From Lentimicrobiaceae bacterium (GTDB taxonomy: Bacteria > Bacteroidota > Bacteroidia > Bacteroidales > UBA4417), in contig JAVBOY010000012.1 of the NCBI GenBank assembly GCA_031550085.1, forward strand, positions 83,689-147,688: a stretch of 64,000 nt of DNA. Direction: 5' to 3'. Below are positions 1,494 to 45,703 of the stretch, piece by piece. The stretch's first letter is position 1. Each line of letters opens with the position of its first letter. The position numbers were made by a program, and so were the translations under genes. The notes beneath the pieces were generated by a model. That model saw nothing but the letters and a program-made list of their open reading frames with translations, had not been told where the DNA came from and searched no databases.

Positions 1494-1635
1494 CCTCCCC
1501 CTCCAAAGGTTAGATTTCGCAGCTACGCTGCTTTGGGATCATAAGATTGGCCTTTTACAAAGATTCCGCGGCTACGCCGCTAAAAAGCAGATTGTAACAG
1601 AAGCCGGAGGTAGCAGAAGTGAAACAAACAATAAA
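1458..1635 (+). repeat. direct repeat copy 1 (about 175 bp unit, 273 bp period)
   Basis: gataaaaccacagggtggtggcattttt...cctccaaaggttagatttcgcagctacgctgc...gtagcagaagtgaaacaaacaa recurs at 1731-1905 with about nine in ten positions identical by eye. Confidence 0.85.
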
Positions 1636-1730
1636 CCAATCGCCTTGTGGCGATATCTTGGTAGCAAAAAATGAAGTAAGCCGATAGAGCCACATCGTGG
1701 CGACATCTTTGTGAAGAAATAATTTAAATC

Positions 1731-1905
1731 GATAAAACCTCAGGGTGGTGACATTTTTTATTGTTTGCCTCCCCTCCAAAGGTTAGATTTCGCAGCTACG
1801 CTGCTTGGGGATTACAAGATCGGACTTTTACAAAGATATCGCGGCTACACCGCTAAAAACAGATTGTAACAGAAGCCGAAGGTAGCAGAAGTAAAACAAA
1901 CAACG
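1731..1905 (+). repeat. direct repeat copy 2, followed by an (aacaaacaacgaata)n-like A/C-rich tail to about 1955
   Basis: Aligns by eye with 1458-1635. The tail aaacaaacaacgaataacaaacaacgaataacgaataacaaacaacaaataaacaac is the sense-strand form of module C of the intergenic repeat family. Confidence 0.85.
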
Positions 1906-1966
1906 AATAACAAACAACGAATAACGAATAACAAACAACAAATAAACAACGGCCGGGCATACAATG

Positions 1967-3910: not shown

Positions 3911-4238
3911 AAGTAAAATAATTAGTACATAATGTAAAAAATATTTTACATTTCAAATGAATTTTATTCTGGGTAAACTTGCAAACCGTCAATTCGTATT
4001 GAATCGCTTCGCGATGATCCAAGCCTTTAAAAAAGCCGGATACAAAATAAGATGTTCAAAAAACGGCACTACCGGAAGCATAAAGAATTTCGCCCCAAGG
4101 GCACCCGGATCGAATCCATATACGAACACGTTTGCTTTTCCGGCTTATTAATTTCTAGTTTACTAGTCTACTCGTTTACTACTTTACGAAATGATTCGTA
4201 TCTTTTTTTGAAGAAGTCCGATACGTTGTGTTTGGGGC

Positions 4239-4267
4239 AAAAAAAAAGTCCATCGCAAGGATGGACT
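4239..4267 (-). terminator. rho-independent terminator of hup
   Basis: agtccatc/gatggact stem (4247-4267) with a gcaag loop, followed on the - strand by nine T (A-run 4239-4247). Confidence 0.8.
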
Positions 4268-4290
4268 CAGGATTGTTTGCGTTCAATTAC

Positions 4291-4566
4291 TTATTTAACG
4301 CTTTTTACGAGGTCAGCACCAGCTTTAAATTTCACCACTTTTTTAGCAGCGATTTTAATTTCCTTGCCGGTTTGGGGATTACGGCCTTTACGAGCTGCAC
4401 GTTTTGCAACCGAGAAAGAACCAAATCCTACTAAAGCTACGCGATCGCCTTCTTTCTTAAGACTTTTTTGAGTAACTTTAACGAAAGCATCAATAGCTCT
4501 CTTGGAATCAGCTTTGGTTAAGCCTGATTCTGCTGCCATAGCATCAATTAATTCAGCTTTGTTCAT
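4291..4566 (-). CDS. hup: HU family DNA-binding protein
   Basis: [29 protein letters not shown]...[41 protein letters not shown] is a canonical HU sequence. Confidence 0.95.
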
Positions 4567-4612
4567 TTTCTAATCGATTTTAATTAATTAATAATTTTGT
4601 GAAAATGTTATG

Positions 4613-4620
4613 CAAAGATA
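4613..4620 (-). promoter_or_regulatory. -7 box TATCTTTG (TAnnTTTG) for hup
   Basis: + strand text caaagata, 47 nt upstream of ATG 4566. Confidence 0.45.
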
Positions 4621-4747
4621 CAACAAATACCATGCAAATGTAGCGTTTCAAGAAAAAAAAACCGTAGGTTCACCATGAAACCAAGAATTTTGGAAAAAAA
4701 AACCTGATTTTAGCAGTTTTTGGAGTTATTTTTTGACAAAAAAACGA

Positions 4748-5716
4748 TTAAGACAGCAGTTTCCAGTCGTCGATTTTTGCAAAGCCCCGCAGGAAATCGC
4801 TTGTCAGCATTCGTTTTTTGCCTTCGAGTTGAAGTTCGTCGATTAAAATGGAACCGTCAGATGTTAAAATTTCTAAAAAAGTGCTGCAATCCGTTTGAAT
4901 GTCACCCGGAAGACCGTTTTTTTTGTCTTTTTGAGGCCTTGTTTTAAAGATTTTCAGGTTCAAAACCTTCCCTTCGGACGAAATCAAGGAGGTAAATGCT
5001 CCCGGAACGGGATTTAACCCTCTCACCAAATTGTGAATTTGCTCCGAAGTCGTGTTCCAGTTGATTTCACAGTCGTTTTTAAAGATTTTGGGCGCCGTTT
5101 TCAACGAGATTTCACTCGAATAAAATTGATGTTGATCCAGCGGGGAAATCGTTCCGTTTTCGATCGATTTCAGCGTTTTTACGACGAGTTCGCTTCCTGA
5201 GTGCATCAATTTGACGTAAAGAATTTCCAGGTTATCCTGAGGCAGGATTTGGACTTTTTCCTGCAAGATGATTTTTCCCGTATCGATTTTCTCATCCAGG
5301 AAAAATGTGGTGACGCCGGTTTCCGTTTCCCCGTTGATAATCGCCCAATTGATGGGCGCCGCGCCGCGGTACTGCGGCAGGAGCGAAGCATGCAGGTTGA
5401 ATGTGCCCAACGGCGGCATACTCCAAATCACTTGAGGCAGCATACGGAAAGCGACTACCACCTGCAAATTGGCATCGAACGATTGCAACTGCTCGATAAA
5501 TCCGGGCGATTTCAGGTTTTCGGGTTGCAAAACGGGCAGTCCTTTTTCGAGGGCGTATTTCTTTACCGCCGATTGGTGCAGGGTTTGTCCGCGTCCGGCA
5601 GGTTTATCGGGAACCGTCACCACAGCGGCCACTTTGTAGCCGCTTTCCAAGATGGCTTGCAGCGGCGCCACGGCAAATCCGGGCGTTCCCATATAGATAA
5701 TTCGTAAATCAGGCAC
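4748..5716 (-). CDS. fmt: methionyl-tRNA formyltransferase
   Basis: LRIIYMGTPGFAVAPL..VVTVPDKPAGRGQ..NLHASLLPQYRGAAPINWAIINGE. The start is GTG at 5716. Confidence 0.95.
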   Translation of the reverse strand: MPDLRIIYMGTPGFAVAPLQAILESGYKVAAVVTVPDKPAGRGQTLHQSAVKKYALEKGLPVLQPENLKSPGFIEQLQSFDANLQVVVAFRMLPQVIWSMPPLGTFNLHASLLPQYRGAAPINWAIINGETETGVTTFFLDEKIDTGKIILQEKVQILPQDNLEILYVKLMHSGSELVVKTLKSIENGTISPLDQHQFYSSEISLKTAPKIFKNDCEINWNTTSEQIHNLVRGLNPVPGAFTSLISSEGKVLNLKIFKTRPQKDKKNGLPGDIQTDCSTFLEILTSDGSILIDELQLEGKKRMLTSDFLRGFAKIDDWKLLS

Positions 5717-5931
5717 CGGGCAAAAGTAGCGATTTGGAATGGAACAACAAAGAAACTGCAGTTCCCATAGAGTTAGCCCATAAAAAAATAAAAAATACGG
5801 GAATTGTCAATAATTTCTTTTTAAAAATTAATATTAATCATTTAATTTTCATTGTAATGTATACAATTCGATTTGTTGATTCGCTGATATGATAAAAATA
5901 TAAGATTGGACAATTTATTTTGGCGCTTTTT

Positions 5932-5962
5932 TTTGGTTGTCAATTTTTTTGCGTTATTTTTG
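5932..5962 (+). promoter_or_regulatory. Bacteroidota-type promoter (TTTG-N19-TATTTTTG) for the adhesin gene
   Basis: TTTG at 5932-5935, a 19-nt spacer, and TATTTTTG at 5955-5962, 71 nt upstream of ATG 6033. Confidence 0.5.
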
Positions 5963-6032
5963 TCTGTACTAATTTCAATATTAGCTAAAATAAACGAATG
6001 GTTGAATCCTATTATTTAAGCCCTACATTGTG

Positions 6033-9000
6033 ATGAAACAAAAATCAGCCGGTATTGTATGCAGGTTTGTTATACCCGTTTGGATTGGTTTGCTTGGTGT
6101 TAACGCTGTTTATGCGCAGACAGGCAGCCCTGCTTTGGAGGCGAGAATCGATAGCCTCAAACAAGTGTATGTTGACAAGGGAGTCGTGGACAGCATTGCG
6201 GAGAAACGGGCGCGAATGATTGTTGAATCTGAATGGTTTAAGGGCAAGGCGCCGGCCGATAAAATTCTGGATACTCCCGATGGCTCTATCATGGTGAACA
6301 GAGATCCAACTTACGCGTCCTATACGCCAACGCAATTAGTTGAAAATATTTTTGTGAAATCGGGAGCATGTTCAAGTGTCAGCAATGTCGTGCTTAAGTC
6401 GCACGGTTGGAATGGTACCATATGGACTCATCCTGATAGCCGCGGGTTGGGATATTTTTCGAAAAACAATTCAAATTTTGAAATGTCGGAAGGCTTGGTG
6501 CTTTCAACGGGTGCATTGCTTTCGATAGAGGGACCGAATGCTTCCTCAGACGGAGTTGGTGACCCGCTTGGTACTGCTCCTATGGGAGACCCCGATTTGA
6601 AATTATTAGCAAAAGATGTAAGAAATTATTCGGCATTGGAATTCGATTTTGTGCCGACTGCCAGCGAAATAACGTTTCGGTATGTGTTCGCCTCGGAAGA
6701 ATACTTGCAATATGCGAATACGGAATTTAATGATGTATTCGGTTTTTTTATTTATGAGCTGAGTAACCCTTCCGGAAAACAGAATATTGCACAGCTACCA
6801 ACTTCGTCAACCGGAAACTATGACGTTTCGATTAACAATGTTAACTGGGGAAATGTAGATTATCCTGTTCACAATACAGCAACTCCACTCACAGCCGGTG
6901 CTAAAAACCCGGGGTATTATAAAAACATTCCCGGATCGTTTGCACCTCCACCTCCATTTGGAGGCGCCAGTTATGACAGTCTGAAAAAAAGCATGCAGTT
7001 TAATGGGCGTACGGTAGTGCTTACTGCAACCTATCAAGTGAATCCCTGTTCATCATATCACCTGAAATTGGCAGTAGGAAATTGTAGTGATAAGAATGTC
7101 CAGTCGGGCGTATTTTTGGAGGCTCACAGTTTAGATCTTGGAGAATTATTGAAAAATTCCGGAAGCATGAACGACGGGCAGGAATACGTTTACAGGGGGT
7201 GTGCGGTTAACAAGTTTACCGTATTCCGTTTGCAAGCCGATCCCACTCCCCTGGTTGTTTATCTCACTTACGGAGGTACTGCATTGAGCGATATTGCATT
7301 GCCGGGGGGAGGGGCGCTTCCCGCTACTGTAACCATTCCTGCCAACGAGTTGTCGGTGGATGTTTTCTATGAGGTTAAAACACTAAATCTAGGAACCGGG
7401 CATGGTACTTTTACGATTACAACCACATGTCCATGCGGAGGAGGAGGTTTGGGATTTACGAAAACAATTGACATATACGACCCGTCGGACCCGGACGATT
7501 TTCAGGCTGTCGCTACGCCGGCATGTCTGGGAACAAACAACGGAACAATAACTGTCAGCTGCGGCACAGGCGGTTCGGGCACTTACGAAAGTTCGATTGA
7601 CGGAGGCATAACATGGCAGTCATTTACCTTGGATTACAAATACACCGAATTAGCATCCGCCGATTATTCTGTATTTATCCGTGATATGGGAGGTTGCACT
7701 TACGAAACACGTAATGTATCTACGTTTTTTTCTACGTTTCTTGCTCCGACTATTTCCGGCACTTTCGATATTTGCGCACCGGCCAGCAGTACAACACTTA
7801 CAGCATCTGCCGGAGGCGATTCCTGTCAGTGGTATAAAGATGGCTCGCCCATAGCGGGTGCTACATCCTTTGTGTACACCGCTACGGCTTCAGGCAATTA
7901 TTATGTGATCGCGTTTGCAGGAGGCTGTAATTCGGATTTCAGTGATACCGTCACCGTTCGAATACATGGTATTGTTCCTGATGCGGCGGTTACAAACCTC
8001 GCCCTTACCTACTGGCAGTACGAAACAGCTCCAAGTTTGTTATCGGCAACGGGAGCAACAGCAATTACCGATCATACGCTCAAATGGTATCAAAGCGACG
8101 GAACAACTCTTTATACCAATGCCGCAAATCCAATTAATACGGCTGTTGCCGGAGTGTATGATTATTATGTAAGTCAAATAAACGATGCGGCAAGTTGCGA
8201 AAGCAATAAAATTTTGGTTAGCGTCATTGTTGCCAAACCGCAGGTTTTGAACTATATTGCTTGTCCTGATGCCGTGGTAACTTTGGGCCTGGATGCGATA
8301 CCGGGAGTATCTTTTTATTGGTATTCGGCTCAAAGCGGAGGAACACTTTTAACGGCTACTTCCTCGGATACTTATATGGTAACAAAAGATGCCGCAACGC
8401 TGCAAACATTTTGGATCGAACCCCGAACAAGTGTAACAACTTATACCCGCATACCTGTTAACCTGAGTTTAAGCGAAAGCTGCGGCGGCGCGCCGGTAAC
8501 TTGCACTCAAACAGGAACGCTCTTATTTAGAGAAGATTTTGGCGGAAACAGCCCAAGCGACCCCAATCCAAAACCAACCGGAATACCGCAAATGGATCCG
8601 ATCTATACCTATACCACACTCCCGGCAGGCATGACGAATGAAAGATATTACACAATTAACAAATCTAGTTTCCCTCACGTTGGCAGCGGGGATTGGTACG
8701 AAATAGACGACCATACTTACTCCGGCGATGCCACAAGAGGGTATATGCTTCAAGTAAATGCCAGTGCAGAAAAGGGACAATTTTATGAGCATCGGCTGGA
8801 CGGGCTGTGTCCCGGAACCAAATTATATTTTTCGGCATGGTTGGTAAGTCTGATGAATCAGAGTCTTTCTGATAAAGTCAATCAAATTTTTACGCTGGAA
8901 GACAATTCCGGAAGAATTATTGTCCAATACACTTCAGGCGCCTTGCCCGATATCAGCCCTACATGGAAACAGTATGGTTTTGAATTTACCGTGCCGCCGG

Positions 9001-10655
9001 GTCTCACTGCCTTAACCCTGCGTGTTATCAACAACAGTACGGGGTCGATGGGGAATGACTTTGCTATGGATGATATTGAAGTACATTTTTGTACTCCGCC
9101 GGTAGCCATAAATTCTTCGGTGGATTTGACCAACTCCGTATGTTTGGACACGCCAATTACGCTGACCGGTACCTATGCCGACGACGGTACTTTTGGCAGC
9201 TCGCTCGACTACCGCTGGGAGTACAGCCTCACGGGAAATATCAACAATCCGGCAGAGTGGACGGTACTGACTGCCTCCTCGGGCGCAAGCCCATTGGACA
9301 TAGACTTCAACATCCCTGTGCCAACTGCTGCCGGTACAGTTTTTTACCGCTTGGTTATTGCCGATGCAGCCAATATGGATAATCCCATGTGCCGCGCTGC
9401 TTCCAACATATTGTCAGTTAACTTCCAAAATAGACCTTCATTCAGTACCATTGCTGCAGCCACCTGTTCCGATGCCCTCAATTTATATGCCTATGTGGAA
9501 AATTTACAAAATACGGTTTCCGACAGCCTCAAATTTAGCACCGAAAACAGCTTCACTACAGGAGTTATCACCAATCCGGAAAATTACATTTTCACGGGCA
9601 TTACCACCATTTATGTAGTAGCAACAAATGGCGGATGCTCTTCGCCCGTGCAAACCATGACCATACAACCGGGCGTTTTGGGACTAAGCGCTCCCAATGA
9701 AAAGCTGAAAAATGTATCTTGTTTTGGAGGAAGTGATGGCTCGGCTTTAGCTCGGCCTTTAAATGGGTCAGCTCCATATACATACGCTTGGAACACTTCG
9801 CCTCCGCAAAGCGATAGCATTGCGCTCAATTTATCGAAAGGGACTTACAGTTGTACGGTTTCGGATGTTGTGGGCTGTACAGGAACGATTAATGTTACCC
9901 TTACAGAGCCACCGCTCCTGAGCATTCAAGGAATCACAACTACAAATACTTACTGCAACGAAGCATTTGGAGCATGCGAAATTCAGGTAACAGGCGGAAC
10001 TCCACCCTATACATACTCATTAGATGGAGGTGTTGTTTATCATACGACAAATAACCACTCCAACTTGTTACCCGGCAATTATCCGGTGGTGGTAAAGGAT
10101 AACAACGATTGTGAAACAGTACCCAGCGATATGACCATAACGAGTCAGCCGTTACAGATTTCAATTTCAACAACAAACACCATTTGCAAAATAGAAGGAA
10201 TGATTTTGGATCCTGGTTCCTTCCCTTTGCCTTATCTGTGGCACGACGGAAGCACTTCACAAACCTGCCAGGTGCGGGATACGGGCTGGTATTGGGTAAA
10301 AGTTGCGCAATCGCCCACTTGCGAAGCCTACGATTCGGTGTATATTGAAAGCTGCGACGTGAATTTGCTGATTCCCAATGCCTTTACACCCAATAGCGAT
10401 GGGCTGAATGATACTTTTCATGTGGTTTGCAATGAAAAAGCGCGGAGTCTCATTCCGGAAAACGGTTTTCATCTTCAGATTTTTAACAAATCCGGGCAGA
10501 TGATATTCCGGTCGAGCAACTTGGATGTACATTGGGATGGAAAATACATGGGAAAAGTGTGTCCCAAGGGAGTTTACAGTTATGTCATAAAGTACGTTGA
10601 TTCGTTTTCAGGACAATCAAAAACGATTCGAGGTACAGTTTTATTGCTGGACTAG
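6033..10655 (+). CDS. large secreted adhesin: choice-of-anchor L domain, SprB-type repeats, T9SS type B (gliding-motility) C-terminal domain
   Basis: Signal peptide (VWIGLLGVNAVYAQ). The choice-of-anchor L signature is GLVLSTG..GDPDL..ALEFDFVPTASEITFRYVFASEEYLQY..FNDVFGFF. SprB repeats are CFGGSDGSA..GSAPYTYAWN and GGTPPYTYSLDGG. The C-terminus reads IPNAFTPNSDGLNDTF. Confidence 0.9.
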   Translation: MKQKSAGIVCRFVIPVWIGLLGVNAVYAQTGSPALEARIDSLKQVYVDKGVVDSIAEKRARMIVESEWFKGKAPADKILDTPDGSIMVNRDPTYASYTPTQLVENIFVKSGACSSVSNVVLKSHGWNGTIWTHPDSRGLGYFSKNNSNFEMSEGLVLSTGALLSIEGPNASSDGVGDPLGTAPMGDPDLKLLAKDVRNYSALEFDFVPTASEITFRYVFASEEYLQYANTEFNDVFGFFIYELSNPSGKQNIAQLPTSSTGNYDVSINNVNWGNVDYPVHNTATPLTAGAKNPGYYKNIPGSFAPPPPFGGASYDSLKKSMQFNGRTVVLTATYQVNPCSSYHLKLAVGNCSDKNVQSGVFLEAHSLDLGELLKNSGSMNDGQEYVYRGCAVNKFTVFRLQADPTPLVVYLTYGGTALSDIALPGGGALPATVTIPANELSVDVFYEVKTLNLGTGHGTFTITTTCPCGGGGLGFTKTIDIYDPSDPDDFQAVATPACLGTNNGTITVSCGTGGSGTYESSIDGGITWQSFTLDYKYTELASADYSVFIRDMGGCTYETRNVSTFFSTFLAPTISGTFDICAPASSTTLTASAGGDSCQWYKDGSPIAGATSFVYTATASGNYYVIAFAGGCNSDFSDTVTVRIHGIVPDAAVTNLALTYWQYETAPSLLSATGATAITDHTLKWYQSDGTTLYTNAANPINTAVAGVYDYYVSQINDAASCESNKILVSVIVAKPQVLNYIACPDAVVTLGLDAIPGVSFYWYSAQSGGTLLTATSSDTYMVTKDAATLQTFWIEPRTSVTTYTRIPVNLSLSESCGGAPVTCTQTGTLLFREDFGGNSPSDPNPKPTGIPQMDPIYTYTTLPAGMTNERYYTINKSSFPHVGSGDWYEIDDHTYSGDATRGYMLQVNASAEKGQFYEHRLDGLCPGTKLYFSAWLVSLMNQSLSDKVNQIFTLEDNSGRIIVQYTSGALPDISPTWKQYGFEFTVPPGLTALTLRVINNSTGSMGNDFAMDDIEVHFCTPPVAINSSVDLTNSVCLDTPITLTGTYADDGTFGSSLDYRWEYSLTGNINNPAEWTVLTASSGASPLDIDFNIPVPTAAGTVFYRLVIADAANMDNPMCRAASNILSVNFQNRPSFSTIAAATCSDALNLYAYVENLQNTVSDSLKFSTENSFTTGVITNPENYIFTGITTIYVVATNGGCSSPVQTMTIQPGVLGLSAPNEKLKNVSCFGGSDGSALARPLNGSAPYTYAWNTSPPQSDSIALNLSKGTYSCTVSDVVGCTGTINVTLTEPPLLSIQGITTTNTYCNEAFGACEIQVTGGTPPYTYSLDGGVVYHTTNNHSNLLPGNYPVVVKDNNDCETVPSDMTITSQPLQISISTTNTICKIEGMILDPGSFPLPYLWHDGSTSQTCQVRDTGWYWVKVAQSPTCEAYDSVYIESCDVNLLIPNAFTPNSDGLNDTFHVVCNEKARSLIPENGFHLQIFNKSGQMIFRSSNLDVHWDGKYMGKVCPKGVYSYVIKYVDSFSGQSKTIRGTVLLLD

Positions 10656-10703
10656 GCGTTGTGTAGAAAATACAAATCCTATTTAAAGGGATGAAACGAA
10701 TAG

Positions 10704-11540
10704 TTAAATTTCTTTTTTCAATTTCCGCCTTGTTCCCAAAAACCTTATCAAATGTGCCAATGCAAACAGCATCACAAACACAAAAATAATGGTGGCTCCC
10801 GAGGGAATATTGAGGTAATACGAAATCAACAAACCGCTGAACGAACCCAAAAAGCTGATTAAAACAGAAAGGTAAATCATTTTTTTTAAATCGTTTACAA
10901 ACAGGTTGGCAGTTACTTGCGGAATGGTTAAAAAAGAAATCACCAAAATAATGCCCACCACGCGGATATGCAACACAATGGCCAATGCTACCAGGGTGAG
11001 CAGCAAATAATTGAACCATTCCACGGCCACACGGTGCGAGCGGGCGTATTCCTCGTCGAACGAAATAAACAGGATTTTATGGTAAAAAAATCCGAAAACA
11101 AGAATGGTTATTATCGCCAACAGCAGCATCAATTGCAGGTCGAGTGTGGTGACGGTTAAAATACTTCCGAATAAAAACGCCATCAGGTTGGGTGCATAAC
11201 CCGGAGTCAGGAATATAAAAATAATCCCCAGCGCCATTCCCAGCGACCACCAGATGCCGATGGCCGAATCTTCGCGCAGGTTGGTTTGCTGGGACGAAAT
11301 GCGGATTCCCAAAGCCGCCAGTACGCTAAATACCACGGCTCCGGCCACCGGATTGATTCCCAGAAAATAACCCAAGCCGATGCCACCGAACGAAGCGTGC
11401 GTAATGCCGCCGCTGATAAAAACCATGCGTCGCGCCACAATGTATGAACCGATAATTCCGCACGAAATGCTTGCCAGCAAAGCCGCCTCGACCGAATGGC
11501 GGAAAAAATCGTAGGAAAAAAGGTGTAAAAAATTATTCAT
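10704..11540 (-). CDS. znuB: metal (Zn/Mn) ABC transporter permease, ABC-3 family
   Basis: MNNFLHLFSYDFFRH start at 11540, 8-9 TM helices and a GGITHASFGGIGLG motif. The start was chosen to limit overlap with the upstream ATPase gene. Confidence 0.9.
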   Translation of the reverse strand: MNNFLHLFSYDFFRHSVEAALLASISCGIIGSYIVARRMVFISGGITHASFGGIGLGYFLGINPVAGAVVFSVLAALGIRISSQQTNLREDSAIGIWWSLGMALGIIFIFLTPGYAPNLMAFLFGSILTVTTLDLQLMLLLAIITILVFGFFYHKILFISFDEEYARSHRVAVEWFNYLLLTLVALAIVLHIRVVGIILVISFLTIPQVTANLFVNDLKKMIYLSVLISFLGSFSGLLISYYLNIPSGATIIFVFVMLFALAHLIRFLGTRRKLKKEI

Positions 11541-12309
11541 GGCTGTGCGGGTGTTGGTGCGAGTGGTCATGCGATTTCAAAACCGTATGCGGTACATTGC
11601 CGTGCGTAATGATTTGAAGCGGGCAGTTGTAAGCGGCTAGCTGTTCTTCGCTGATGATGTTCGACGGATGGTAATGCAGTTGCGTATTGACACAGGCAAT
11701 GGTTTTTACAAAATAGGAAATGGTTCCCACATCGTGCGACACCATGAGGATGGCCATGTGCTCGTTCATTTTGGCGAGGATTTTGTACAAATCGCTTTCG
11801 AACTGGTTGTCGACAAAGGTGCTGGGCTCGTCCAAAATAAGTAGTTGCGGATCGGAAATCAAGGCGCGGGCAATGAAAACACGCTGCATTTGTCCGCCAG
11901 AAAGGGCGCCGATGGACCGTTTAGCCAATGCTCCGATTCCTAATTCGGTTAACAAAGCATGCGCTTTTTCATAATCTTTTTGGGAATACCGGAGAAACCA
12001 GCCTTTTTGCGAAAGCAAACCGGACAACACCACATCAATAACGGTAATCGGGAATTTCTTGTCGATTTGGGAGGTTTGGGGCAAATAACCGATAAATCCC
12101 TTGCCGCTGCTTTCGTTGAAACGTTGCACATGGCCTTTGATGGGTTTTAACAAGCCCAGCAGCACTTTGATCAGCGTGGTTTTTCCGCCGCCGTTCGGAC
12201 CAATCACGCCGATATAGTCGTTTTTGCGGATGGTCAACGATACATCGCGCAAAACCACATGGCTTCCGTAGCCGGCCGTGACGTTATTGATTTCGAGTAG
12301 CTTGTCCAT
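11533..12309 (-). CDS. znuC: metal ABC transporter ATP-binding protein with His-rich C-terminal tail
   Basis: Walker A GPNGGGKTT, signature LSGGQMQR and Walker B LLILDEP. The tail is HDHSHQHPHSHE. ATG 12309 is preferred over TTG 12330. Confidence 0.9.
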   Translation of the reverse strand: MDKLLEINNVTAGYGSHVVLRDVSLTIRKNDYIGVIGPNGGGKTTLIKVLLGLLKPIKGHVQRFNESSGKGFIGYLPQTSQIDKKFPITVIDVVLSGLLSQKGWFLRYSQKDYEKAHALLTELGIGALAKRSIGALSGGQMQRVFIARALISDPQLLILDEPSTFVDNQFESDLYKILAKMNEHMAILMVSHDVGTISYFVKTIACVNTQLHYHPSNIISEEQLAAYNCPLQIITHGNVPHTVLKSHDHSHQHPHSHE

Positions 12310-12319
12310 TTTGCAGTTT

Positions 12320-13195
12320 TTAATCGGCAATCAGTTCTGCAAATTTCAACAAATTTTGTTGCCAGTCGGCATACATGGGATCAAATTCGACGATTTTGGC
12401 GCCGATTTCTTTGGCAATGGTTTCGGCGTTTTTGGTATCGAATTCTTTGGAAATAAACACCGTCCGGATTTGTTTTTGCCTTCCCAGATCGATCAATTGG
12501 CGTACATGAGCCGGAGAAGGTTCTTTGCCTTCGTCTTCGATACAAATTTGGGTTAAACCGTAATCGCGAGCAAAATAGCCCAAGGCCGGATGATAAATCA
12601 TAAAGCTTTTTCCTTCCTGTCCTTTTAACTTCCCGATTATGAGGGCATGGATGGAATCGGCCAGATGGTTGAATTTTTCCAGATTGCTTTTGTAAAAACC
12701 GGCATTTACCGAATCCAAAACACAGAGGCTGTGGCAAATGTTTGCCGCTTGTTGCTTGAGGCAGGTGGTCGACATCCAAATATGCGGATCGATGCTTTCG
12801 TGGGTGTGACCTTCGTGTTGGTGCAGGTGCCCGCTGAGCGGAGGGATGCCGGAATTGGTGTAAATAACATCCATTTTTGGGTTGGAGGATACCACACGCG
12901 GCAGCAGAGCTTGTTCAAAATCGAGCCAACCGATGGCAGCATACACACCGGCCTGCGAAATTTTTTCCATGTCGCGGGGAGTGGGTTCATAAGTTTCGTG
13001 ATTGCTTCCGGGCGGAAGCAGCACTTCTATCTGGAAGTTGTTTCCTGCAATCTGCTCAAACACTTGTTTTTGCGGTAAAATACTAACGACCGCAATTTTC
13101 TTTCCGGAATCCTTTGGAGGGGCTGGTTTGCAAGCGGTAAATAATGCAAAGCTTGCAACGACAGGCAGTAGGATGTTTTTGATAGGAGGTTTCAT
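12320..13195 (-). CDS. znuA: metal ABC transporter substrate-binding lipoprotein (ZnuA/TroA family)
   Basis: Lipobox LFTAC and a His-rich loop GHLHQHEGHTHESIDPHIW, which is typical of zinc-specific ZnuA. Confidence 0.9.
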   Translation of the reverse strand: MKPPIKNILLPVVASFALFTACKPAPPKDSGKKIAVVSILPQKQVFEQIAGNNFQIEVLLPPGSNHETYEPTPRDMEKISQAGVYAAIGWLDFEQALLPRVVSSNPKMDVIYTNSGIPPLSGHLHQHEGHTHESIDPHIWMSTTCLKQQAANICHSLCVLDSVNAGFYKSNLEKFNHLADSIHALIIGKLKGQEGKSFMIYHPALGYFARDYGLTQICIEDEGKEPSPAHVRQLIDLGRQKQIRTVFISKEFDTKNAETIAKEIGAKIVEFDPMYADWQQNLLKFAELIAD

Positions 13196-13595
13196 GAGGT
13201 GTTGAAGTGTTTAAGTGTTGAACTGTTGAATCGTTTAACTGTTGAGCTGTTATTTGTTGTTCGTTATTTGTTGAAACGTTTATTTGTTGAAACGTTTATT
13301 TGGTGAAATGTGAAATGGGGGGAACGGGAAGTGCTTGCTCGATTGATTTTAATACGATAATAGAATCTAATAATGTGTTATTTTAATTGCATAAAGTGAA
13401 ATGGCTGTTTAACTGTTTAATTGTTTATTTGTATCATCCCCCTTTCTGCTTTTTTCCTTTCTACATGACCACTCGTTACCCGTCACTTGAAAAACTCATT
13501 TGTAATTCCTTCTGCTATCTCCTTTCTGCTAAAAAAGTTTATCATTCATCATTAAAATACACATTTTCAATTTTTAACTTTCCATTTTCAATTAA
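13196..13595 (-). repeat. mosaic intergenic repeat, modules A-B-C (copy R2)
   Basis: Shares exact k-mers with 15435-15874: gtttatttggtgaaatgtgaa (13294-13314 and 15517-15537) and tttccattttcaattaat. Also carries the ctgcttttttcctttct module. Confidence 0.85.
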
Positions 13596-14858
13596 TTAAA
13601 GTCTTTCATCCACCTGTTTTTGGTCCCAAAACGCTTTGATATCGTATACGACGGATTTTTCTGCTTTTAGTTTATTGAAATTAAAATCCCGGAATTCATC
13701 GTGGGCTACCGCCAATATAATGGCGCTGTATTTCCCGGTTTCGGCCGATAGATTATTTTTCAAGGGAATCTGGTATTCTTGCGCCACTTCTCCGGCATTT
13801 GCGCGCGGATCGTATACATCCACGTGGCAGCCGAAGTCGGCCAATTCGCCGATCAAGTCGATTACCCGTGAATTGCGGATGTCGGAACAGTTTTCCTTGA
13901 AGGTAATTCCCAACACCAATACATGCGCGCCGGCAACGTCAATCCCCTTTTTTATCATCAGTTTGATGACCCGTTTGGCAACATAAAAGCCCATGTTGTC
14001 GTTCAGGCGGCGTCCGGCCAGGATAATTTCAGGATTGTAGCCCAGTTCATGCGCTTTGTGTGTAAGGTAGTACGGATCGACCCCAATGCAATGTCCGCCG
14101 ACCAAGCCGGGCGTGAACTTCATAAAATTCCATTTGGTGCCGGCTGCTTCGAGCACTTCGTGGGTGTCGATTTGCATTTCATTGAAAATCAACGCCAATT
14201 CATTCACAAAGGCAATGTTGAGGTCGCGCTGCGAATTTTCGATTACTTTGGCGGCTTCCGCTACTTTGATGCTCGAAACCAGATGGGTTCCTACTTTTAC
14301 AATGTTTTGATACAGTGCATCCACTTTTTTCCCGGTTTCGGGCGTGGAACCGCTGGTAATCTTTTTTACGTTGCTGAGCGTGTGTACTTTGTCTCCGGGA
14401 TTGATGCGTTCAGGTGAGTAGCCGCAAAAAAAATCGCGGTTGAATCGCAACCCGCTGGTTTTTTCCAGCACGGGAACACAATCTTCTTCGGTCGCGCCCG
14501 GATACACGGTACTTTCGTAAATAACAACATCATTGGGCTTCAAAACCCTGCCGACCGTTTCGGAAGCGCTCAACAAAGGCGTTAAATCGGGATGCTTGTT
14601 TTTATCGACCGGAGTGGGAACCGTGATAATAAAATAAGTACAGGCCTTTAAATCTTCTGGTTGGGTTGTAAAGCTTAGTTTTCCGGCGGCCGCAAGTTCC
14701 TCGTCTGCGGTTTCGCCGGATGTATCTTTTCCGTTTTTCAATTCGGCAATGCGTTCGGGTTTGATGTCGAAGCCGACGGTTGGAAACAGTTTTCCAAATT
14801 CAACGGCCAATGGCAAACCCACGTAACCCAATCCGATGATTCCTATTTTTGGTTCCAT
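13596..14858 (-). CDS. nucleotide-sugar dehydrogenase (UDP-glucose/GDP-mannose dehydrogenase family, TviB/WbpO-like)
   Basis: N-terminal Rossmann motif IGIIGLGYVGLPLA, catalytic region GLVGGHCIGVDPYY, about 420 aa. Confidence 0.9.
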   Translation of the reverse strand: MEPKIGIIGLGYVGLPLAVEFGKLFPTVGFDIKPERIAELKNGKDTSGETADEELAAAGKLSFTTQPEDLKACTYFIITVPTPVDKNKHPDLTPLLSASETVGRVLKPNDVVIYESTVYPGATEEDCVPVLEKTSGLRFNRDFFCGYSPERINPGDKVHTLSNVKKITSGSTPETGKKVDALYQNIVKVGTHLVSSIKVAEAAKVIENSQRDLNIAFVNELALIFNEMQIDTHEVLEAAGTKWNFMKFTPGLVGGHCIGVDPYYLTHKAHELGYNPEIILAGRRLNDNMGFYVAKRVIKLMIKKGIDVAGAHVLVLGITFKENCSDIRNSRVIDLIGELADFGCHVDVYDPRANAGEVAQEYQIPLKNNLSAETGKYSAIILAVAHDEFRDFNFNKLKAEKSVVYDIKAFWDQKQVDERL

Positions 14859-15434
14859 TTACGTAGTAACTTGTTGGCGGTTTTGCTCGCTCAGGTTAAA
14901 ATTTTCGGGGTGGCAGGCGGTTTTTTGTCTATAAAAATTTTCAATAATCTTAAAATCCATTTCGTAGTTTCCGGTGGTTTCCAGCAACGGCCCAATGCCC
15001 ACATGTTTGTTTTTATAATCCACGAATCCCAGCAAAATGGGTACGTGCGCTTGGTGTGCAATAAAATAAAATCCCTTTTTCCAGTTTTTGACCAGATTCC
15101 TGGACCCTTCGGGCGTAATGGTGATGATGAGTTCATCCTCTTTTAAAAGCATATCCACTACCTGATTGGTGGCATTGGCTCCTTTGCTGCGGTCTACCGG
15201 AATGCCGCCGCAACTTCTTAAAATCCCACCGAATGGGAAACGAAAGAATTCCTTCTTGATCAAATACTTAGCCCGGATGCCCAATCCCATGTAGCCGAAA
15301 AATCCGATGATAAAATCCCAAATGGATGTGTGCGGCGCGACAATAATAACCGCTTTCTTGATTTCGTCGGGTTTTTCGGTGGTAACATGCCAACCGAAAA
15401 GGCTTAAGATAAAACGTCCGGTTCGGGCTCTCAT
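14859..15434 (-). CDS. lysophospholipid (1-acyl-sn-glycerol-3-phosphate) acyltransferase family protein
   Basis: The HxxxxD motif appears as APHTSIWDF, and a PEGSR motif is present. The stop codon TAA directly abuts the ATG of the next gene. Confidence 0.8.
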   Translation of the reverse strand: MRARTGRFILSLFGWHVTTEKPDEIKKAVIIVAPHTSIWDFIIGFFGYMGLGIRAKYLIKKEFFRFPFGGILRSCGGIPVDRSKGANATNQVVDMLLKEDELIITITPEGSRNLVKNWKKGFYFIAHQAHVPILLGFVDYKNKHVGIGPLLETTGNYEMDFKIIENFYRQKTACHPENFNLSEQNRQQVTT

Positions 15435-15874
15435 TCGTTGTTGAATTGTTTATTTGTTGAATTGTTTATTGGGAGAAAATAGGGGAATGAGTGTTGAATT
15501 GTTGAGTTGTTGAACTGTTTATTTGGTGAAATGTGAACCGTGAAGTGGGTGTTGAAGTGTTGAGGTGTTGGACTGTTTATTGGTGTAGGGTATAAACTTG
15601 TTACCTATAACCTGTTAACTGAACGACACCCCCGCCCTTACGGGCACCCCCGCAAGCGGGGGATAGTTTTCTGCCTTCTGCTTTTTCCTTTCTGCTTTCT
15701 GCAATTAAAACTTGTTTACGCGTTACCCGTTACAAAACCTATTTTCAATTCTCAATTTTCCATTTTCAATTAATAAGCAGATTTCTTCCTTTCGCTTCGC
15801 TCCAGTCGAAATGACCTGTAATTCATCGTTAAACACTCATTTTTAATTCTTCATTTTTAATTTTTAATTAAAAC
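15435..15874 (-). repeat. mosaic intergenic repeat, modules A-B-hairpins-C (copy R3)
   Basis: Same modules as 13196-13595 and 46445-47013 (for example gccttctgctttttcctttc). Contains GC hairpins at 15627-15662. Confidence 0.85.
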
Positions 15875-17623
15875 TTACTCAATCCCCAAATCCAGTTGAT
15901 CGCGCAACACGCTTACGTTGGGATTCTCGGAGTTGAGTTGTTCGTAACGTTCCCGGTCGGTATAAGGCCTGCGGGTTTCATCCTGCGGCTTTTCAACCAA
16001 TACCGTTTCGATGATTATCTGGTCATTTTGCAGTTTGTTGCGCAAAAGTTCCAGCAGATCGGGCAAATAGTTTTTGACTTCCCGTTCCAAAACCGCACCT
16101 TCCAGCTTTAGAACGATGGTTGTTTCCTTTTCCAAAACGGGTTTGTATTGGGTCAATGCCGTGTAAATCAAAGTGGATTCCGATTGTTTGCTTTGGGCAA
16201 AATCGTTCCAATGCGATTCCAATTGTTCGAAAGTAAAGGGCTGTATGCGGGGCTGGCTTTTGGCGGCTTCTTCGGATGCGTTAGCCGTTTTTTTTTCAAG
16301 GTCTTTTAAGGAAACACCCGAAGCCGAAGGCATCATCGGATGGTTGATGATGGATTGCGGCGATGGATTCGATTGTGGTACGACGGCCGGTTGCGCGGAT
16401 GCCATAGCTTGCTGCGGCCTTTCCGTTGGTTGAACTGGTTGCGTGTCAGCTTGTGGTGGAACGGCGGTTGTTGTTTGTTGCTTGGACGGTTGTGCCGGAA
16501 CTATCGGTTGATTGGATGCAACCGGTTGATTTTCATTCAACTGAGTTAGTCGCATCAAGGTGATTTCCAGCGACAACCGTTTGTTGTTCGCCGCACGGTA
16601 ACCGGCATCGCATTTGTTTACCAGTTCGAGCCCTTTGACCAGAAACAAAAGCGAGCATTTTTGCGCTTGCGCTACGTATTTTTGGCGGATGCTGTCGGCA
16701 ATTTCGATCAAAATCACGGTGGACGGATCTTTGGCCATCATCAGATTGCGCAAATGGTCGCCCAAGCCGGTGATAAAATGCTGTCCGTCGAAACCCTTGG
16801 TGATAACATCGTTTAGCAGCAACATCGCTTGCTGGATATCGGCTGAAAGCAAATGATCGATCAGCCGGAAATAATAATCGTAATCCAGCACGTTTAAATT
16901 CTCGATTACCAGCGGATAGGTAATGTTGCGGTTCCCCAGGTTCGCCATTTGGTCGAAAATGGAAAGCGAATCGCGCATGGCTCCGTCGGCTTTTTGGGCG
17001 ATAATGTCCAAGGCAGCGCGTTCGGCTGTAATCTGTTCGCTTTGAGCTACCCAAGCCAGGTGTTCGGCAATATCCTGAACGGTAATCCGCTTGAAATCAA
17101 ATATCTGGCAACGTGATAATATCGTCGGAATAATTTTGTGTTTTTCGGTGGTAGCCAAAATAAATTTGGCATAAGCCGGAGGTTCTTCCAGGGTTTTCAA
17201 AAAAGCGTTGAACGCCTGCAACGACAGCATATGAACCTCGTCGATGATATACACCTTGTAAGCGCCCATTTGCGGCGGAATGCGCACCTGGTCGACCAAA
17301 CTGCGGATGTCGTCGACCCCGTTGTTGGAGGCGGCGTCCAGTTCGTGCACGTTAAACGAGGATGATTCGTTGAAGGCGCGGCAGGAAGTACATTCGTTGC
17401 AAGGTTCGATATTTTCGGTCGGGTGCTCGCAGTTGATGGTTTTGGCAAAAATACGGGCACAAGTGGTTTTTCCCACGCCCCGAGGGCCGCAAAACAAAAA
17501 AGCCTGGGCCAATTGGTTGTTGCGGATGGCGTTTTTAAGCGTATTGGTGATATGTTGCTGGCCTACAACGGTATTGAATGTCGAGGGGCGGTATTTCCGT
17601 GCCGAAACAATAAAATTTTCCAT
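15875..17623 (-). CDS. dnaX: DNA polymerase III subunit gamma/tau
   Basis: MENFIVSARKYRPSTF..GQQHIT, Walker A GPRGVGKTT, zinc module CNECTSC and Walker B IIDEVHML. A P/Q-rich linker precedes the C-terminal domain. ATG 17623 is preferred over the listed 17683. Confidence 0.95.
   Translation of the reverse strand: MENFIVSARKYRPSTFNTVVGQQHITNTLKNAIRNNQLAQAFLFCGPRGVGKTTCARIFAKTINCEHPTENIEPCNECTSCRAFNESSSFNVHELDAASNNGVDDIRSLVDQVRIPPQMGAYKVYIIDEVHMLSLQAFNAFLKTLEEPPAYAKFILATTEKHKIIPTILSRCQIFDFKRITVQDIAEHLAWVAQSEQITAERAALDIIAQKADGAMRDSLSIFDQMANLGNRNITYPLVIENLNVLDYDYYFRLIDHLLSADIQQAMLLLNDVITKGFDGQHFITGLGDHLRNLMMAKDPSTVILIEIADSIRQKYVAQAQKCSLLFLVKGLELVNKCDAGYRAANNKRLSLEITLMRLTQLNENQPVASNQPIVPAQPSKQQTTTAVPPQADTQPVQPTERPQQAMASAQPAVVPQSNPSPQSIINHPMMPSASGVSLKDLEKKTANASEEAAKSQPRIQPFTFEQLESHWNDFAQSKQSESTLIYTALTQYKPVLEKETTIVLKLEGAVLEREVKNYLPDLLELLRNKLQNDQIIIETVLVEKPQDETRRPYTDRERYEQLNSENPNVSVLRDQLDLGIE
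16288..16296 (-). other. A9 slippery run (A AAA AAA in phase) inside dnaX; candidate gamma-producing recoding site
   Basis: The sense strand reads CTT GAA AAA AAA ACG GCT AAC. A -1 shift, or one extra A in the transcript, reads AAC GGC TAA. Confidence 0.4.
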
Positions 17624-17651
17624 TTCCAAATTCGTTCTTCTGCTATCATGC

Positions 17652-17659
17652 AAAAGTAG
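17652..17659 (-). promoter_or_regulatory. -7 box TACTTTTG for dnaX
   Basis: + strand text caaaagta, 29 nt upstream of ATG 17623. Confidence 0.4.
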
Positions 17660-17728
17660 CATTAAGTCATGAATAATCGACAATTAAATAATTAACAATC
17701 GACGCTTCGGACAAGCCGGTAAATGAGT

Positions 17729-22232: not shown

Positions 22233-22943
22233 TTATTTTTTAGCCAGAGCAGTTTTGTAACGGCTTTCGACGGTTTTCCAATCTACCAGATTCCAAAATG
22301 CATCCACATATTCGGGCCGGCGATTTTGGTATTTCAAATAATAGGCGTGTTCCCATACATCCAATGCCAACAAGGGAATTCCATTTTCTTCTACAACATC
22401 CATCAGCGGGTTGTCTTGATTGGAAGTGGTCGTGATTTTCAACTCATGATTCTTCGTAAGGATCAGCCAAGCCCATCCGCTTCCGAATTTTCCTTTGGCG
22501 GCATTCGAAAATTGTTCCTTAAACTTATCGAAACTTCCGAATTGTTTCTCGATCACTTTCATAAGGTCTGCGCTGGGTTGTCCACCGGCGTTGGGTTTCA
22601 TATTTTCCCAGTACAAAGTGTGGTTGTAAAATCCTCCGGCATTGTTCCGCACATCGACGGAACGTTTGCTGATGGTTGCAAAAATTGTTTCCATCGGCAT
22701 GGTTTCCATATCGGTTCCTTTGATGGCCGCAACAAATTTGGTGTAATAGCCCCGGTGGTGCTTGTCGTAGTGGAGTTCGACGGTTGCTTTGTCAATATAA
22801 GGCTCCAGGGCGTCGTACGAATAAGGCAAAGCCGGAAATACAAAACTTTGGGCGGCTGCTTGCGCTGGTTTATTTTGCGCTGACAAACGGCCTCCGGTTA
22901 AAAAGGCAAACCCGCATAAGGTAAAAAGCAATAAATGTTTCAT
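22233..22943 (-). CDS. Fe/Mn superoxide dismutase with N-terminal signal peptide (exported form)
   Basis: MKHLLLFTLCGFAFLTGGRLSAQ is followed by [39 protein letters not shown] 22943 was chosen as the start. Confidence 0.9.
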   Translation of the reverse strand: MKHLLLFTLCGFAFLTGGRLSAQNKPAQAAAQSFVFPALPYSYDALEPYIDKATVELHYDKHHRGYYTKFVAAIKGTDMETMPMETIFATISKRSVDVRNNAGGFYNHTLYWENMKPNAGGQPSADLMKVIEKQFGSFDKFKEQFSNAAKGKFGSGWAWLILTKNHELKITTTSNQDNPLMDVVEENGIPLLALDVWEHAYYLKYQNRRPEYVDAFWNLVDWKTVESRYKTALAKK

Positions 22944-23088
22944 GATTTTAGATATAAAAGTTAGAATGAAAGAATTAAAAAATAGTCTAATACCAAAGGT
23001 GGCGATTAACAAGAGATATAATCTTTTCGTGAAAATAAATTCGAATAATTAATAGGGTCTCCGAAAGCTGGCAATAAGCGATCTAAAG

Positions 23089-23703
23089 TTAGTTATTTTG
23101 ATGCCTTTTGTAAAAATCATTTACTTTTTCCCAATTCACGAGATTCCAAAAAGCGTTGATGTAGTCGGGACGCCGGTTTTGGTATTTTAAATAGTAAGCA
23201 TGTTCCCACACGTCCAAACAAAGGATCGGTTTGCCGTGACAATCATGGATATCCATCAACGGATTGTCTTGATTGGCGCTGGAACAAATGCACAACTCGC
23301 CGTTTTCTTTTACGCTCAGCCACACCCAACCGCTGCCAAATCGATTTGTTGCCGCTTCTGTAAATTTGGTTTTGAAATTTTCGAACGAGCCGAATTGTTT
23401 GGTAATCGCTTCGCCGATTTCATTTTTGGGTTCACCGCCTCCGTTTGGCGAAAGAATTTCCCAAAACAGTTTGTGATTGTAATATCCGCCGCTATTGTTC
23501 CGGACGGCAACCGGCAGTTTGCTGATGTTGGCAAAAATTTCTTTCAAAGGCTTGCCTGCATATTCAGTTTCGGCGATAGCCGCCACAAATTTATCAAAAT
23601 AAGCTTTGTGGTGCTTCGTATGGTGGATTTCCATGGTCATGCGGTCGATATGAGGCTCCAATGCGTCATATGCGTAAGGAAGTTCGGGGAATTTATAGTC
23701 CAT
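23089..23703 (-). CDS. sod: Fe/Mn superoxide dismutase (cytoplasmic form)
   Basis: [44 protein letters not shown]. Confidence 0.95.
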
Positions 23704-38561: not shown

Positions 38562-38665
38562 CTATTTTCAAATAAAAACTAAACCTGCAAAGAGTGTTTT
38601 TTTTGTAAAAAATAGTTGGTGATTAAACCTTGAATCTGGTTGAATTGTTTGAAACGGTTTTTGCG

Positions 38666-44187: not shown

Positions 44188-44271
44188 AGATTATTTCACG
44201 CTATTCCTGTGCCGGATGATCAATTCAAGTTTGAACTTGGTGATTCGTTCCATGCAAACGCGTTATCTTTT

Positions 44272-45684: not shown

Positions 45685-45703
45685 GCCGGAATAAAATGTT
45701 TAG

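Follow-up and report, generated by a model that had tools for sequence, protein, structure and literature searches.

Among bacterial simple-sequence repeats, those with a unit of seven nucleotides are over-represented, and slippage has been suggested as the cause (PMC4692102, which also cites Mrazek 2007 and Mazel 1990 for the cyanobacterial STRR heptamers and the GGGAATC repeats of Xanthomonas). In 2015, MacGregor described heptamer repeats of the sequence TAACTGA in five Bacteroidetes as well as in cyanobacteria and Beggiatoaceae (PMC4679880). They are mostly intergenic, face a start codon, often end 1 nt before it, and are not predicted to fold; where they can lie was said to depend mainly on the stop codons that one strand contains, and Elizabethkingia, Gramella, and Aequorivita were reported to have assemblages of several heptamers in spacers that are almost identical (PMC4679880). 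Translation start regions of Bacteroidetes are depleted in AUG and tuned by lack of structure (Baez et al. 2019, PMC6847099). Here, we describe a modular repeat family in the intergenic spacers of a 64,000-nt stretch of DNA, hereafter the window, from a Lentimicrobiaceae bacterium (assembly GCA_031550085.1, contig JAVBOY010000012.1, positions 83,689 to 147,688). Its type copy lies at positions 13196-13595 of the window, between a dehydrogenase gene and znuA. We show that these spacers are a case of heptamer-type simple-sequence repeats, a kind that is over-represented in the intergenic DNA of bacteria.

Five spacers of the window share modules far above the level expected by chance:

13196-13595, minus strand: type copy, between the dehydrogenase gene and znuA.
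15435-15874, minus strand: second copy, between dnaX and the acyltransferase gene.
43176-43299, plus strand: plus-strand copy, in the spacer 43091-43386 between the EamA-family gene and the DUF3108 gene; families I1, I2, I4, I8, and I11.
46445-47013, minus strand: largest copy, the sufB-sufC spacer, within the suf operon; families D8 and D9.
1583-1953, plus strand: fifth, partial copy, downstream of a KilA-N pseudogene; families D11, D16, I13, and I19.

Chance levels were taken from dinucleotide-preserving shuffles of the window. The module A consensus, with at most three mismatches, matched 6 times versus 0.01 expected, the module B consensus 5 times versus 0.03, and an 8-nt TTCAACA word pair 15 times versus 0.68, with 13 of the 15 matches inside the spacers. 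Two exact minus-strand copies of the 21-mer TTCACATTTCACCAAATAAAC lie at 13294-13314 and 15517-15537, and a plus-strand copy with one mismatch lies at 43267-43287; the shuffles give an expectation of 0. Pattern scans of the window found only two weak module matches outside the spacers, and every match inside them lies on the strand of the flanking genes. BLAST between the five spacers, taken in mRNA sense, gave 65 same-sense high-scoring segment pairs (HSPs) versus 1 in the opposite sense, with a roughly collinear order of modules and identities between copies of 21 nt exact, 28 nt at 100%, and 32 nt at 97%. The modular family with a strict strand lock that a preliminary description of the window had proposed is thus supported, both by the module matches on the gene strand and by the HSPs, and the exact words quoted there are present, TTCACATTTCACCAAATAAAC twice without mismatch. 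If the whole spacer is taken as the unit, the agreement in orientation of five spacers is by itself weak (P about 0.06). Some details of that description need correction. The plus-strand copy, given as an exact reverse complement, is 84-93% identical over 27-44 nt. The order of stop codon, A, B, C, and start codon stands as an approximation, since the largest copy alternates A and B in two 112-nt tandem units and the plus-strand copy has no module A. Module C runs up to the ATG of znuA, the acyltransferase gene, and sufC, as claimed, but not in 43091-43386. Finally, the copy at 1583-1953 was absent from the earlier list.

Tandem Repeats Finder (TRF) resolved every module into a degenerate head-to-tail array with units of 7, 8, 14, or 16 nt; periods of 24, 53, and 112 are also present in the spacers, as multiples or super-units. 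In mRNA sense, the words are as follows:

Module A: word TGAAAAT, period 7.
Module B: words AGCAGAA and GAAAGGA, period 7.
Linker: word AACAAAC, periods 7 and 14.
Module C: words TTCAACAN, AAATAAACGTTTCAAC, and CATTTCA, periods 8, 16, and 7.

The features of heptamer-type repeats are all found here: a unit of about 7 nt repeated head to tail in all five spacers, an intergenic location (21 arrays in the 8.8 kb of intergenic DNA of the window), and a non-random strand relative to the neighboring open reading frame (ORF). Since the modules are short-unit tandem arrays like the described heptamer repeats, the family is of a known kind, and the earlier statement that it resembles nothing known has to be abandoned (PMC4679880; PMC4692102). 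It stands outside the strict TAACTGA family: the sense words are TTCAACA, CAGTTAAA, AATAAAC, TGAAAAT, and AGCAGAA, and a TAACTG-like word occurs in the spacers on the antisense strand only.

In mRNA sense, the type copy is made of the following parts:

13560-13595, minus strand: module A, a C-poor array of TGAAAAT-type heptamers, 3 nt past the TAA stop codon (13596-13598) of the dehydrogenase gene.
13438-13530, minus strand: module B, two purine-rich, C-poor arrays with gggtaacgagtgg words in between.
13324-13432, minus strand: inner part, a G-poor 8-nt array at 13406-13432 (the D2 reference copy), then module D.
13196-13323, minus strand: module C, a G-poor 8/16-nt array up to the znuA ATG (13195), with TRF periods of 8, 16, and 24.

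Within its module A, TRF reports period 7 at 13563-13593, and the pattern match covers 13570-13593 on the minus strand. The two B arrays (AGCAGAA/GAAAGGA) lie at 13508-13530 and 13438-13462, with the pattern match at 13508-13526 on the minus strand (families D6 and I11), and the 5' half of the copy has a composition of G 44 and C 17. Module D is an AT-rich non-repeat block (ccatttcacNNtatgcRattaaaata...), and a D-like block is also present at 46573-46684; positions 193-217 of the type-copy spacer match positions 319-343 of the 46445-47013 spacer at 88% (BLAST). Ends of contigs from independent Logan assemblies (see below), at 13339 and 13383, flank module D on either side.

The second copy starts in mRNA sense with A arrays (15839-15872 and 15741-15774) followed by B (15668-15702), a GC-rich double hairpin (15630-15665), and C arrays (15435-15600) that lead to the ATG at 15434. 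On the minus strand, the double hairpin reads cccccgCUUGcggggg-u-gcccGUAAgggc-ggggg and has CUUG and GUAA loops, which are stable tetraloops on the gene-sense strand only; read on the plus strand, it is a terminator-like hairpin followed by a T-rich tract. Closely similar hairpins adjoin (TTGAAAA)n arrays in three Tidjanibacter loci (L169, L170, and L273). The plus-strand copy consists of B (43176-43207), an AACAAAC array (43211-43246), and C (43256-43299). In the largest copy, the two 112-nt A+B units (46781-46992; TRF period 112, 2 copies, 88%) precede an AACAAAC array (46733-46768), GGTGAAC-type words around a D-like insert (46531-46726), and C arrays (46445-46530) that reach the sufC ATG; 26-nt direct repeats flank the 112-nt D-like block in 46545-46712. 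The fifth copy has B-like words at 1583-1631 and 1855-1903 and a heptamer array of AACAAAC/AACGAAT at 1894-1953 (TRF periods 7, 14, and 21), and by BLAST it matches the spacers 13196-13595, 15435-15874, and 43091-43386 in the same sense. The KilA-N domain pseudogene upstream of it (1155-1475, plus strand; Pfam E = 9e-7) has an in-frame stop at codon 19. After it comes a tandem duplication of 273 nt (1439-1586 and 1712-1859, 81% identical) with the small GC hairpins gcagcTACgctgc and gcggcTACgccgc and a perfect minus-strand -7 box (TATCTTTG, 1831-1838).

Read as mRNA, the long spacers have two parts of opposite composition. After the stop codon, their 5' halves have G 44-64 versus C 17-27, and in the three long spacers each of the three frames reaches a stop codon within 15-51 nt (51 nt in the type copy). 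Before the ATG, the 3' halves have C 50-72 versus G 14-29, and some windows of 100 nt contain only 1-4 G. These 3' halves hold 1-6 start codons on the sense strand versus 24-29 on the antisense strand. Directly before znuA, the acyltransferase gene, and sufC, the run free of ATG, GTG, and TTG spans 194, 192, and 92 nt, respectively, to be compared with a median of 24 nt in the window and a 99th percentile of 125 nt in 563 co-directional spacers of other Bacteroidota. The folding energy of the region from -120 to +30 is -5.9 kcal/mol for sufC and -7.3 kcal/mol for znuA, versus a median of -22.9 kcal/mol, which makes these two leaders the least structured among the 54 gene starts of the window. 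Whole spacers, compared in sense orientation with dinucleotide shuffles, have fold z-scores of +2.28 (13196-13595), -0.23 (15435-15874), and +2.25 (46445-47013), so that the first and the last fold worse than 100 of 100 shuffles and the second is about average; the antisense strand of the type copy scores +1.90. The suggestion in the preliminary description that the spacers serve as unstructured translation leaders fits these long start-free runs and the two least foldable leaders of the 54. The full bipartite form is rare: it was found in 3 of the 12 long co-directional spacers of the window versus 2 of 264 elsewhere. A switch from G to C skew shared by all long spacers of the clade was considered and rejected (3/12 in the window, 0/159 at sufB loci, and 2/105 at dehydrogenase loci).

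The sense strand of four spacers (all except the fifth copy) contains no TAnnTTTG box, the -7 element of Bacteroidota sigma-A promoters, versus 29 intergenic boxes in the window, of which about 20 are well placed before genes; this agrees with the earlier observation. The type copy has no such box even when one mismatch is allowed. In 43091-43386, sites with one mismatch lie 36-57 nt from the ATG, and TATTTTTTG, considered there as a -7 box, has one T too many. Scans for sigma-70 promoters and hairpin terminators gave counts equal to those expected from shuffles. Rfam produced no match at the gathering score over the whole window, and only sub-threshold eukaryotic noise at E up to 5. We found no terminal inverted repeats, target duplications, or notable hairpins in the four spacers, only short and weak inverted repeats. 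Hence, the spacers lack the palindromic stem-loop units of REP/BIME elements as well as the terminal inverted repeats and target-site duplication of MITEs, and their ends are simply a stop codon and a start codon. They also differ from CRISPR, which has identical repeats of 24-48 nt and unique spacers, in that the units are 7-16 nt long, contiguous, and degenerate. The Rfam and inverted-repeat scans confirm in this respect the preliminary description, which had seen no Rfam, CRISPR, inverted-repeat, or REP-like signature; its other suggestions, a transcription insulator or an RNA processing element, received no computed support.

The earlier concern that the modules might be an assembly artefact could be checked in independent Logan assemblies of two runs (SRR23967709 and SRR23967707). 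These are identical to the window at 13383-15468, 4343-13339, and 5989-13293, and one base differs over 43303-45992. The sequence is therefore not an assembly artefact. Contigs end inside or at the edge of modules (13293, 13339, 13383, 15468, and 43303), and the further Logan contigs found through exact neighboring proteins are short and stop at repeats. Since the contigs end at modules, the words are probably present in multiple copies in the genome.

The exact family was not found elsewhere: module C words had no match in the representative genomes of GTDB or in the JGI metagenomes, and module D words had none in the JGI metagenomes. The nearest homologue of ZnuA is 57% identical. In Lentimicrobiaceae, the orthologous sufB-sufC spacers are 35 to 800 nt long and contain other short-period words (CTTCAAAC, GGATTCAA, AATTAGAA, and CATTTCA). 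The sequence of the spacers turns over fast, while their style persists. The module A pattern TTGAAAATGGANANTTNANAATTGAAAA has more than 118 matches in other genomes, mostly Bacteroidota, and also in Oscillospiraceae, Patescibacteria, and others. Among the intergenic matches, 57 of 91 have a same-strand gene upstream, and 36 of these 57 start at most 7 nt from its stop codon; arrays of (TTGAAAA)n at or inside the upstream stop codon are seen in many phyla (loci L162-L279, for example L214 1186-1260, L205 565-636, and L185 7800-7880). A complementary TTTTCAA array follows (TTGAAAA)n within 220 nt in 20 cases and precedes it in none, and this order is the polarity of an A-rich tract, hairpin, and U-rich tract terminator. 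In Saprospiraceae, the (TTGAAAA)n/(TTTTCAA)n pair is part of a larger inverted-repeat element (atgttcgccaaaTTGAAAATGG...), and in Oscillospiraceae it flanks a 200-nt palindromic element. Some matches are coding, as in the IENGKLKIEN of secretion-signal domains and of superoxide dismutase. We rejected, as a general reading, module A as a conserved or horizontally moving element because heptamer words are extremely diverse (98 words in 127 arrays). Given this diversity, the coding matches, and the fact that (AAAATTG)n is missing from the recurring heptamer words in loci not chosen for repeats, we read module A as a common simple word, for which independent origin is sufficient.

The comparison loci were fetched by protein similarity, not chosen for their repeats. 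In 2.2 Mb, the commonest period of intergenic tandem repeats is 7 (127 arrays), versus 67 arrays of period 8 and 9 of period 6. The window is denser in arrays, with 2.4 per kb of intergenic DNA versus 0.7-1.3 per kb in 160 other loci. In 3.0 Mb, we counted the arrays located up to 30 nt after a stop codon or before a start codon, limited to periods not divisible by three. After stop codons, C-less arrays outnumber G-less ones (49 versus 22, p = 0.002). Start-free runs are longer, and C is more frequent, in spacers that lack a -7 box than in those that contain it. Full bipartite spacers built of unrelated words are present in other Bacteroidota (L308 5749-6005, L032 3878-4134, and L054 7246-7557), and G-poor arrays reach the ATG in the closest relative (L082 5384-5603) and in L130 (8650-8854). 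In L032 (3878-4134 and 4531-4776), L308, and L054, G-rich, C-free words follow the stop codon and C-rich, G-free counterparts continue to the ATG; one of these stretches has a single G in 246 nt.

We propose that slippage-born arrays have spread between spacers and have been kept only in the orientation that suits translation independent of Shine-Dalgarno pairing, and we give this reading a probability of roughly 0.5. The arrays would arise and change by slipped-strand expansion, and recombination or gene conversion would copy blocks of them from spacer to spacer; the spacers show no mobilising enzyme and no terminal structure. The three long spacers, one of which lies inside an operon (sufB-sufC), are probably transcribed together with their flanking genes, because they lack a Bacteroidota promoter box and a terminator. 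Translation of such an mRNA would tolerate one orientation of the spacer only. Past the stop codon, the C-poor arrays would close all frames with further stop codons. The G-poor arrays before the ATG would offer no AUG, GUG, or UUG and would be unable to form G-C or G-U pairs, thereby giving the Shine-Dalgarno-blind ribosomes of Bacteroidia a long single-stranded landing free of decoys on which to select the right start. An inverted spacer would put about 25 spurious start codons before each gene. If translation depends on orientation in this way, the strand lock would result from selection on the mRNA and not from an oriented mechanism of insertion.

Several points weigh against this proposal. 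Both co-transcription and the leader function are read from sequence, the role of the C-poor half is putative, and only five copies were examined. In the plus-strand copy, module C ends 87 nt before the ATG, and the fifth copy (1583-1953) is followed by a terminator-like hairpin (1968-2003) and by no gene start. In the 3.0-Mb count, the bias before start codons is modest (42 G-less versus 27 C-less arrays, p = 0.09). Between convergent genes, arrays after stop codons are C-less in 11 cases and G-less in none, which avoidance of decoy starts cannot explain.

The main rival, which we consider unlikely, sees in the C-rich, G-poor, unstructured 3' part of 130-250 nt a Rho loading site (rut) that works as an attenuator. 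Unless ribosomes load fast, Rho would end transcription ahead of the downstream gene or within it, the C-poor 5' part would delay Rho, and the outcome would be to insulate unrelated neighbors (dehydrogenase and znuACB) or to tune sufC against sufB. Rut sites are C-rich, G-poor, and unstructured, and the 3' halves have this composition and folding over at least about 80 nt: C well above G (50-72 versus 14-29), G as low as 1-4 per 100 nt, very low folding energies in the znuA and sufC leaders, and, to the eye, a pyrimidine-C dimer every 8 nt in the TTCAACAC arrays. Moreover, unrelated genes follow each other here with no intrinsic terminator between them, whereas the dehydrogenase gene of relatives ends in a classic hairpin terminator. 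Yet a terminator between sufB and sufC would split an operon of jointly acting products, and the downstream genes would be left silent because three of the four spacers have no promoter box after the supposed terminator. A rut site and a ribosome landing pad look alike in composition, and both may coexist.

The other explanations are less likely. A non-autonomous mobile or mosaic element of the BOX, BIME, or MITE kind, inserted by a mechanism that sets its orientation, would make the polarity a by-product. The high identity of distant copies given above, their roughly collinear modules, the 26-nt direct repeats around the 112-nt D-like block (46545-46712), the breaks at modules in contigs of independent assemblies, and the (TTGAAAA)n arm of a clear inverted-repeat element in Saprospiraceae all speak for it. 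We nevertheless find it quite unlikely: the four spacers lack terminal inverted repeats, target duplications, and hairpins, two of them (13196-13595 and 46445-47013) fold worse than all 100 shuffles with 15435-15874 at the average, and the number, order, and internal tandem duplication of modules vary between copies. REPs are linked to RAYT transposases; we noticed no transposase or RAYT-like gene alongside the spacers. The orthologous sufB-sufC spacers of relatives hold different words, and none is an empty site. Very unlikely, in our opinion, are arrays of protein-binding sites with post-transcriptional or architectural regulation. A site would then correspond to one 7-8-nt word, and the protein would bind either single-stranded RNA (as an RRM protein, a cold-shock protein, or ribosomal protein S1 does) or DNA. 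Near-identical words do follow each other at a regular spacing of 7-8 nt and the module matches are strand-specific; MacGregor put forward the same idea for the TAACTGA repeats (PMC4679880), and S1 was suggested to touch A-rich leader positions in Flavobacterium (PMC6847099). However, the words differ between modules, spacers, and related genomes (98 distinct heptamers in 127 arrays) and what is conserved is composition, not sequence; because the words vary so widely, a single sequence-specific protein does not fit. The last candidate, a structured non-coding RNA or riboswitch-like leader, could draw on the long, conserved-looking leaders before znuA and sufC and on the GC-rich double hairpin with CUUG and GUAA loops at 15630-15665, but it is close to refuted by the lack of any Rfam match at the gathering score (noise only at E up to 5), by the fold z-scores (+2.28, -0.23, and +2.25), and by the lack of homologous copies outside this genome in the collections searched.

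The window has a G+C content of 43%. The SufB encoded in it shares 83-88% identity with Lentimicrobium proteins and with proteins from metagenome-assembled genomes of Lentimicrobiaceae, which points to a Lentimicrobiaceae-like member of Bacteroidota as the source. The genes next to the spacers were assigned as follows:

15875-17662: DnaX (Pfam).
14859-15434: acyltransferase (Pfam).
13596-14858: UDP-glucose/GDP-mannose dehydrogenase family (UDPG/MGDP dehydrogenase; Pfam).
12320-13195: ZnuA (Pfam), followed by an ABC ATPase and a permease.
47014-48462: SufB (Pfam).
45704-46444: ABC ATPase in the SufC position (Pfam).
44272-45684: SufD (Pfam).
42152-43090: EamA-family protein (Pfam).
43387-44187: DUF3108 protein (Pfam).

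In relatives, the dehydrogenase gene has an ordinary hairpin terminator at its end and znuA is not adjacent. The acyltransferase-dehydrogenase pair (13596-15434) is bracketed by mosaic copies in the same sense (13196-13595 and 15435-15874), its neighbors dnaX and znuACB are functionally unrelated to it, and this gene order is missing in relatives; the pair could be a cassette put into one ancestral spacer. The DnaX loci fetched for comparison include none from Lentimicrobiaceae.

Other repeats were seen in the window. Directly past the stop of the gene 38666-39343, the minus strand carries a short array resembling module C (ttcaaacaattcaaccagattcaagg, 38620-38660). It adds a sixth, small site with G-poor words in the sense of the gene, and it lies upstream of a normal TActTTTG promoter box. 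An 8-nt tandem array on the plus strand at 4155-4187 (CTAGTTTA/ACTAGTCTACTCGTTTAC) is related to the ctactcg and cttgtttac words of 46843-46978. It lies inside a 139-aa ORF (4052-4471) that may not be a gene, since it has no Pfam match, and a Logan contig end is nearby (4343). Between a gene ending at 53099 and a gene starting at 53191, there is a perfect 23-nt inverted repeat with a 4-nt gap (53125-53174, ATTCAACCGATTGGTATTATACC/GGTATAATACCAATCGGTTGAAT), which could be an operator or a terminator. Finally, 91 nt at 78% identity are shared by 22274-22364 and 23127-23217, in the adjacent minus-strand genes 22233-23012 and 23089-23703, which suggests that these are tandem paralogues.

One may go further and imagine, as a doubtful extension of our proposal, that Bacteroidota hold a dedicated and convergently evolving class of intercistronic elements, made of short tandem words, which would take the place of coupling based on Shine-Dalgarno sequences. 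A "release" half without C would be rich in stops, and a "landing" half without G would be devoid of starts. If this were true, ribosomes would end cleanly and reload over hundreds of nucleotides inside operons, and the family of the window would be the version of one lineage, the spacers of L308, L032, and L054 being others. These spacers are clean natural extremes, and ready-made test pieces, for how Bacteroidia ribosomes choose a start codon in the absence of Shine-Dalgarno pairing: they sit directly before essential genes (sufC) and within operons, and their mirror strand is full of decoy starts. They would also suggest that selection explains why heptamer repeats are so frequent between bacterial genes and biased in orientation, as has long been noted. 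If the arrays are only neutral products of slippage filtered by selection, they are a tidy example of a known phenomenon rather than a new system.

The known systems can now be compared with this locus. Like the TAACTGA repeats, the spacers consist of intergenic 7-nt tandem words with a strong orientation bias relative to the ORF, an end that is often only a few nt from the start codon, no predicted RNA structure, and contig breaks; in both cases, the stop codons of one orientation serve to explain the sites where copies are tolerated, and mosaics of several heptamers occur. They differ in their words, in that many units are 8 or 16 nt, and in that the strand facing the start codon is stop-poor and G-poor, nearly the reverse case, with TTTAACTG on the antisense strand; the C-poor-then-G-poor design and the position inside an operon have not been described for TAACTGA repeats. 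With the heptameric simple-sequence repeats of PMC4692102, they share a unit of about 7 nt, an intergenic location, a copy number that varies greatly between relatives, inverted pairs of arrays, and a proposed origin by slippage, but those are mostly arrays of a single word whereas the window has several words in a repeated composite with a fixed polarity to genes. The BIME/REP elements of enterobacteria and the BOX elements of Streptococcus pneumoniae are also modular, located within transcription units, variable in their number of modules, and often just past stop codons; they are defined by palindromic stem-loop units, whereas our spacers have no palindromes and fold no better than shuffles. 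BrickBuilt of Porphyromonas gingivalis is an intergenic repeat with internal tandem units in a member of Bacteroidota, but it is described as a minisatellite carried by a MITE (PMC4596501), and MITEs are defined by their terminal inverted repeats, of which the spacers show none. The known effect of initiation regions in Bacteroidia concerns about 20 nt (PMC6847099), whereas here 92-194 nt built of repeats are involved. Rut sites resemble the 3' parts in being C-rich, G-poor, unstructured RNA longer than about 80 nt; here, there is no evidence of termination and the region abuts a start codon inside an operon. Relative to the known heptamer repeats, what is new is the multi-word composite copied between spacers, its fixed polarity from C-poor to G-poor, its position in spacers without promoters, including the one between sufB and sufC, and the extreme length of leader free of start codons and structure.

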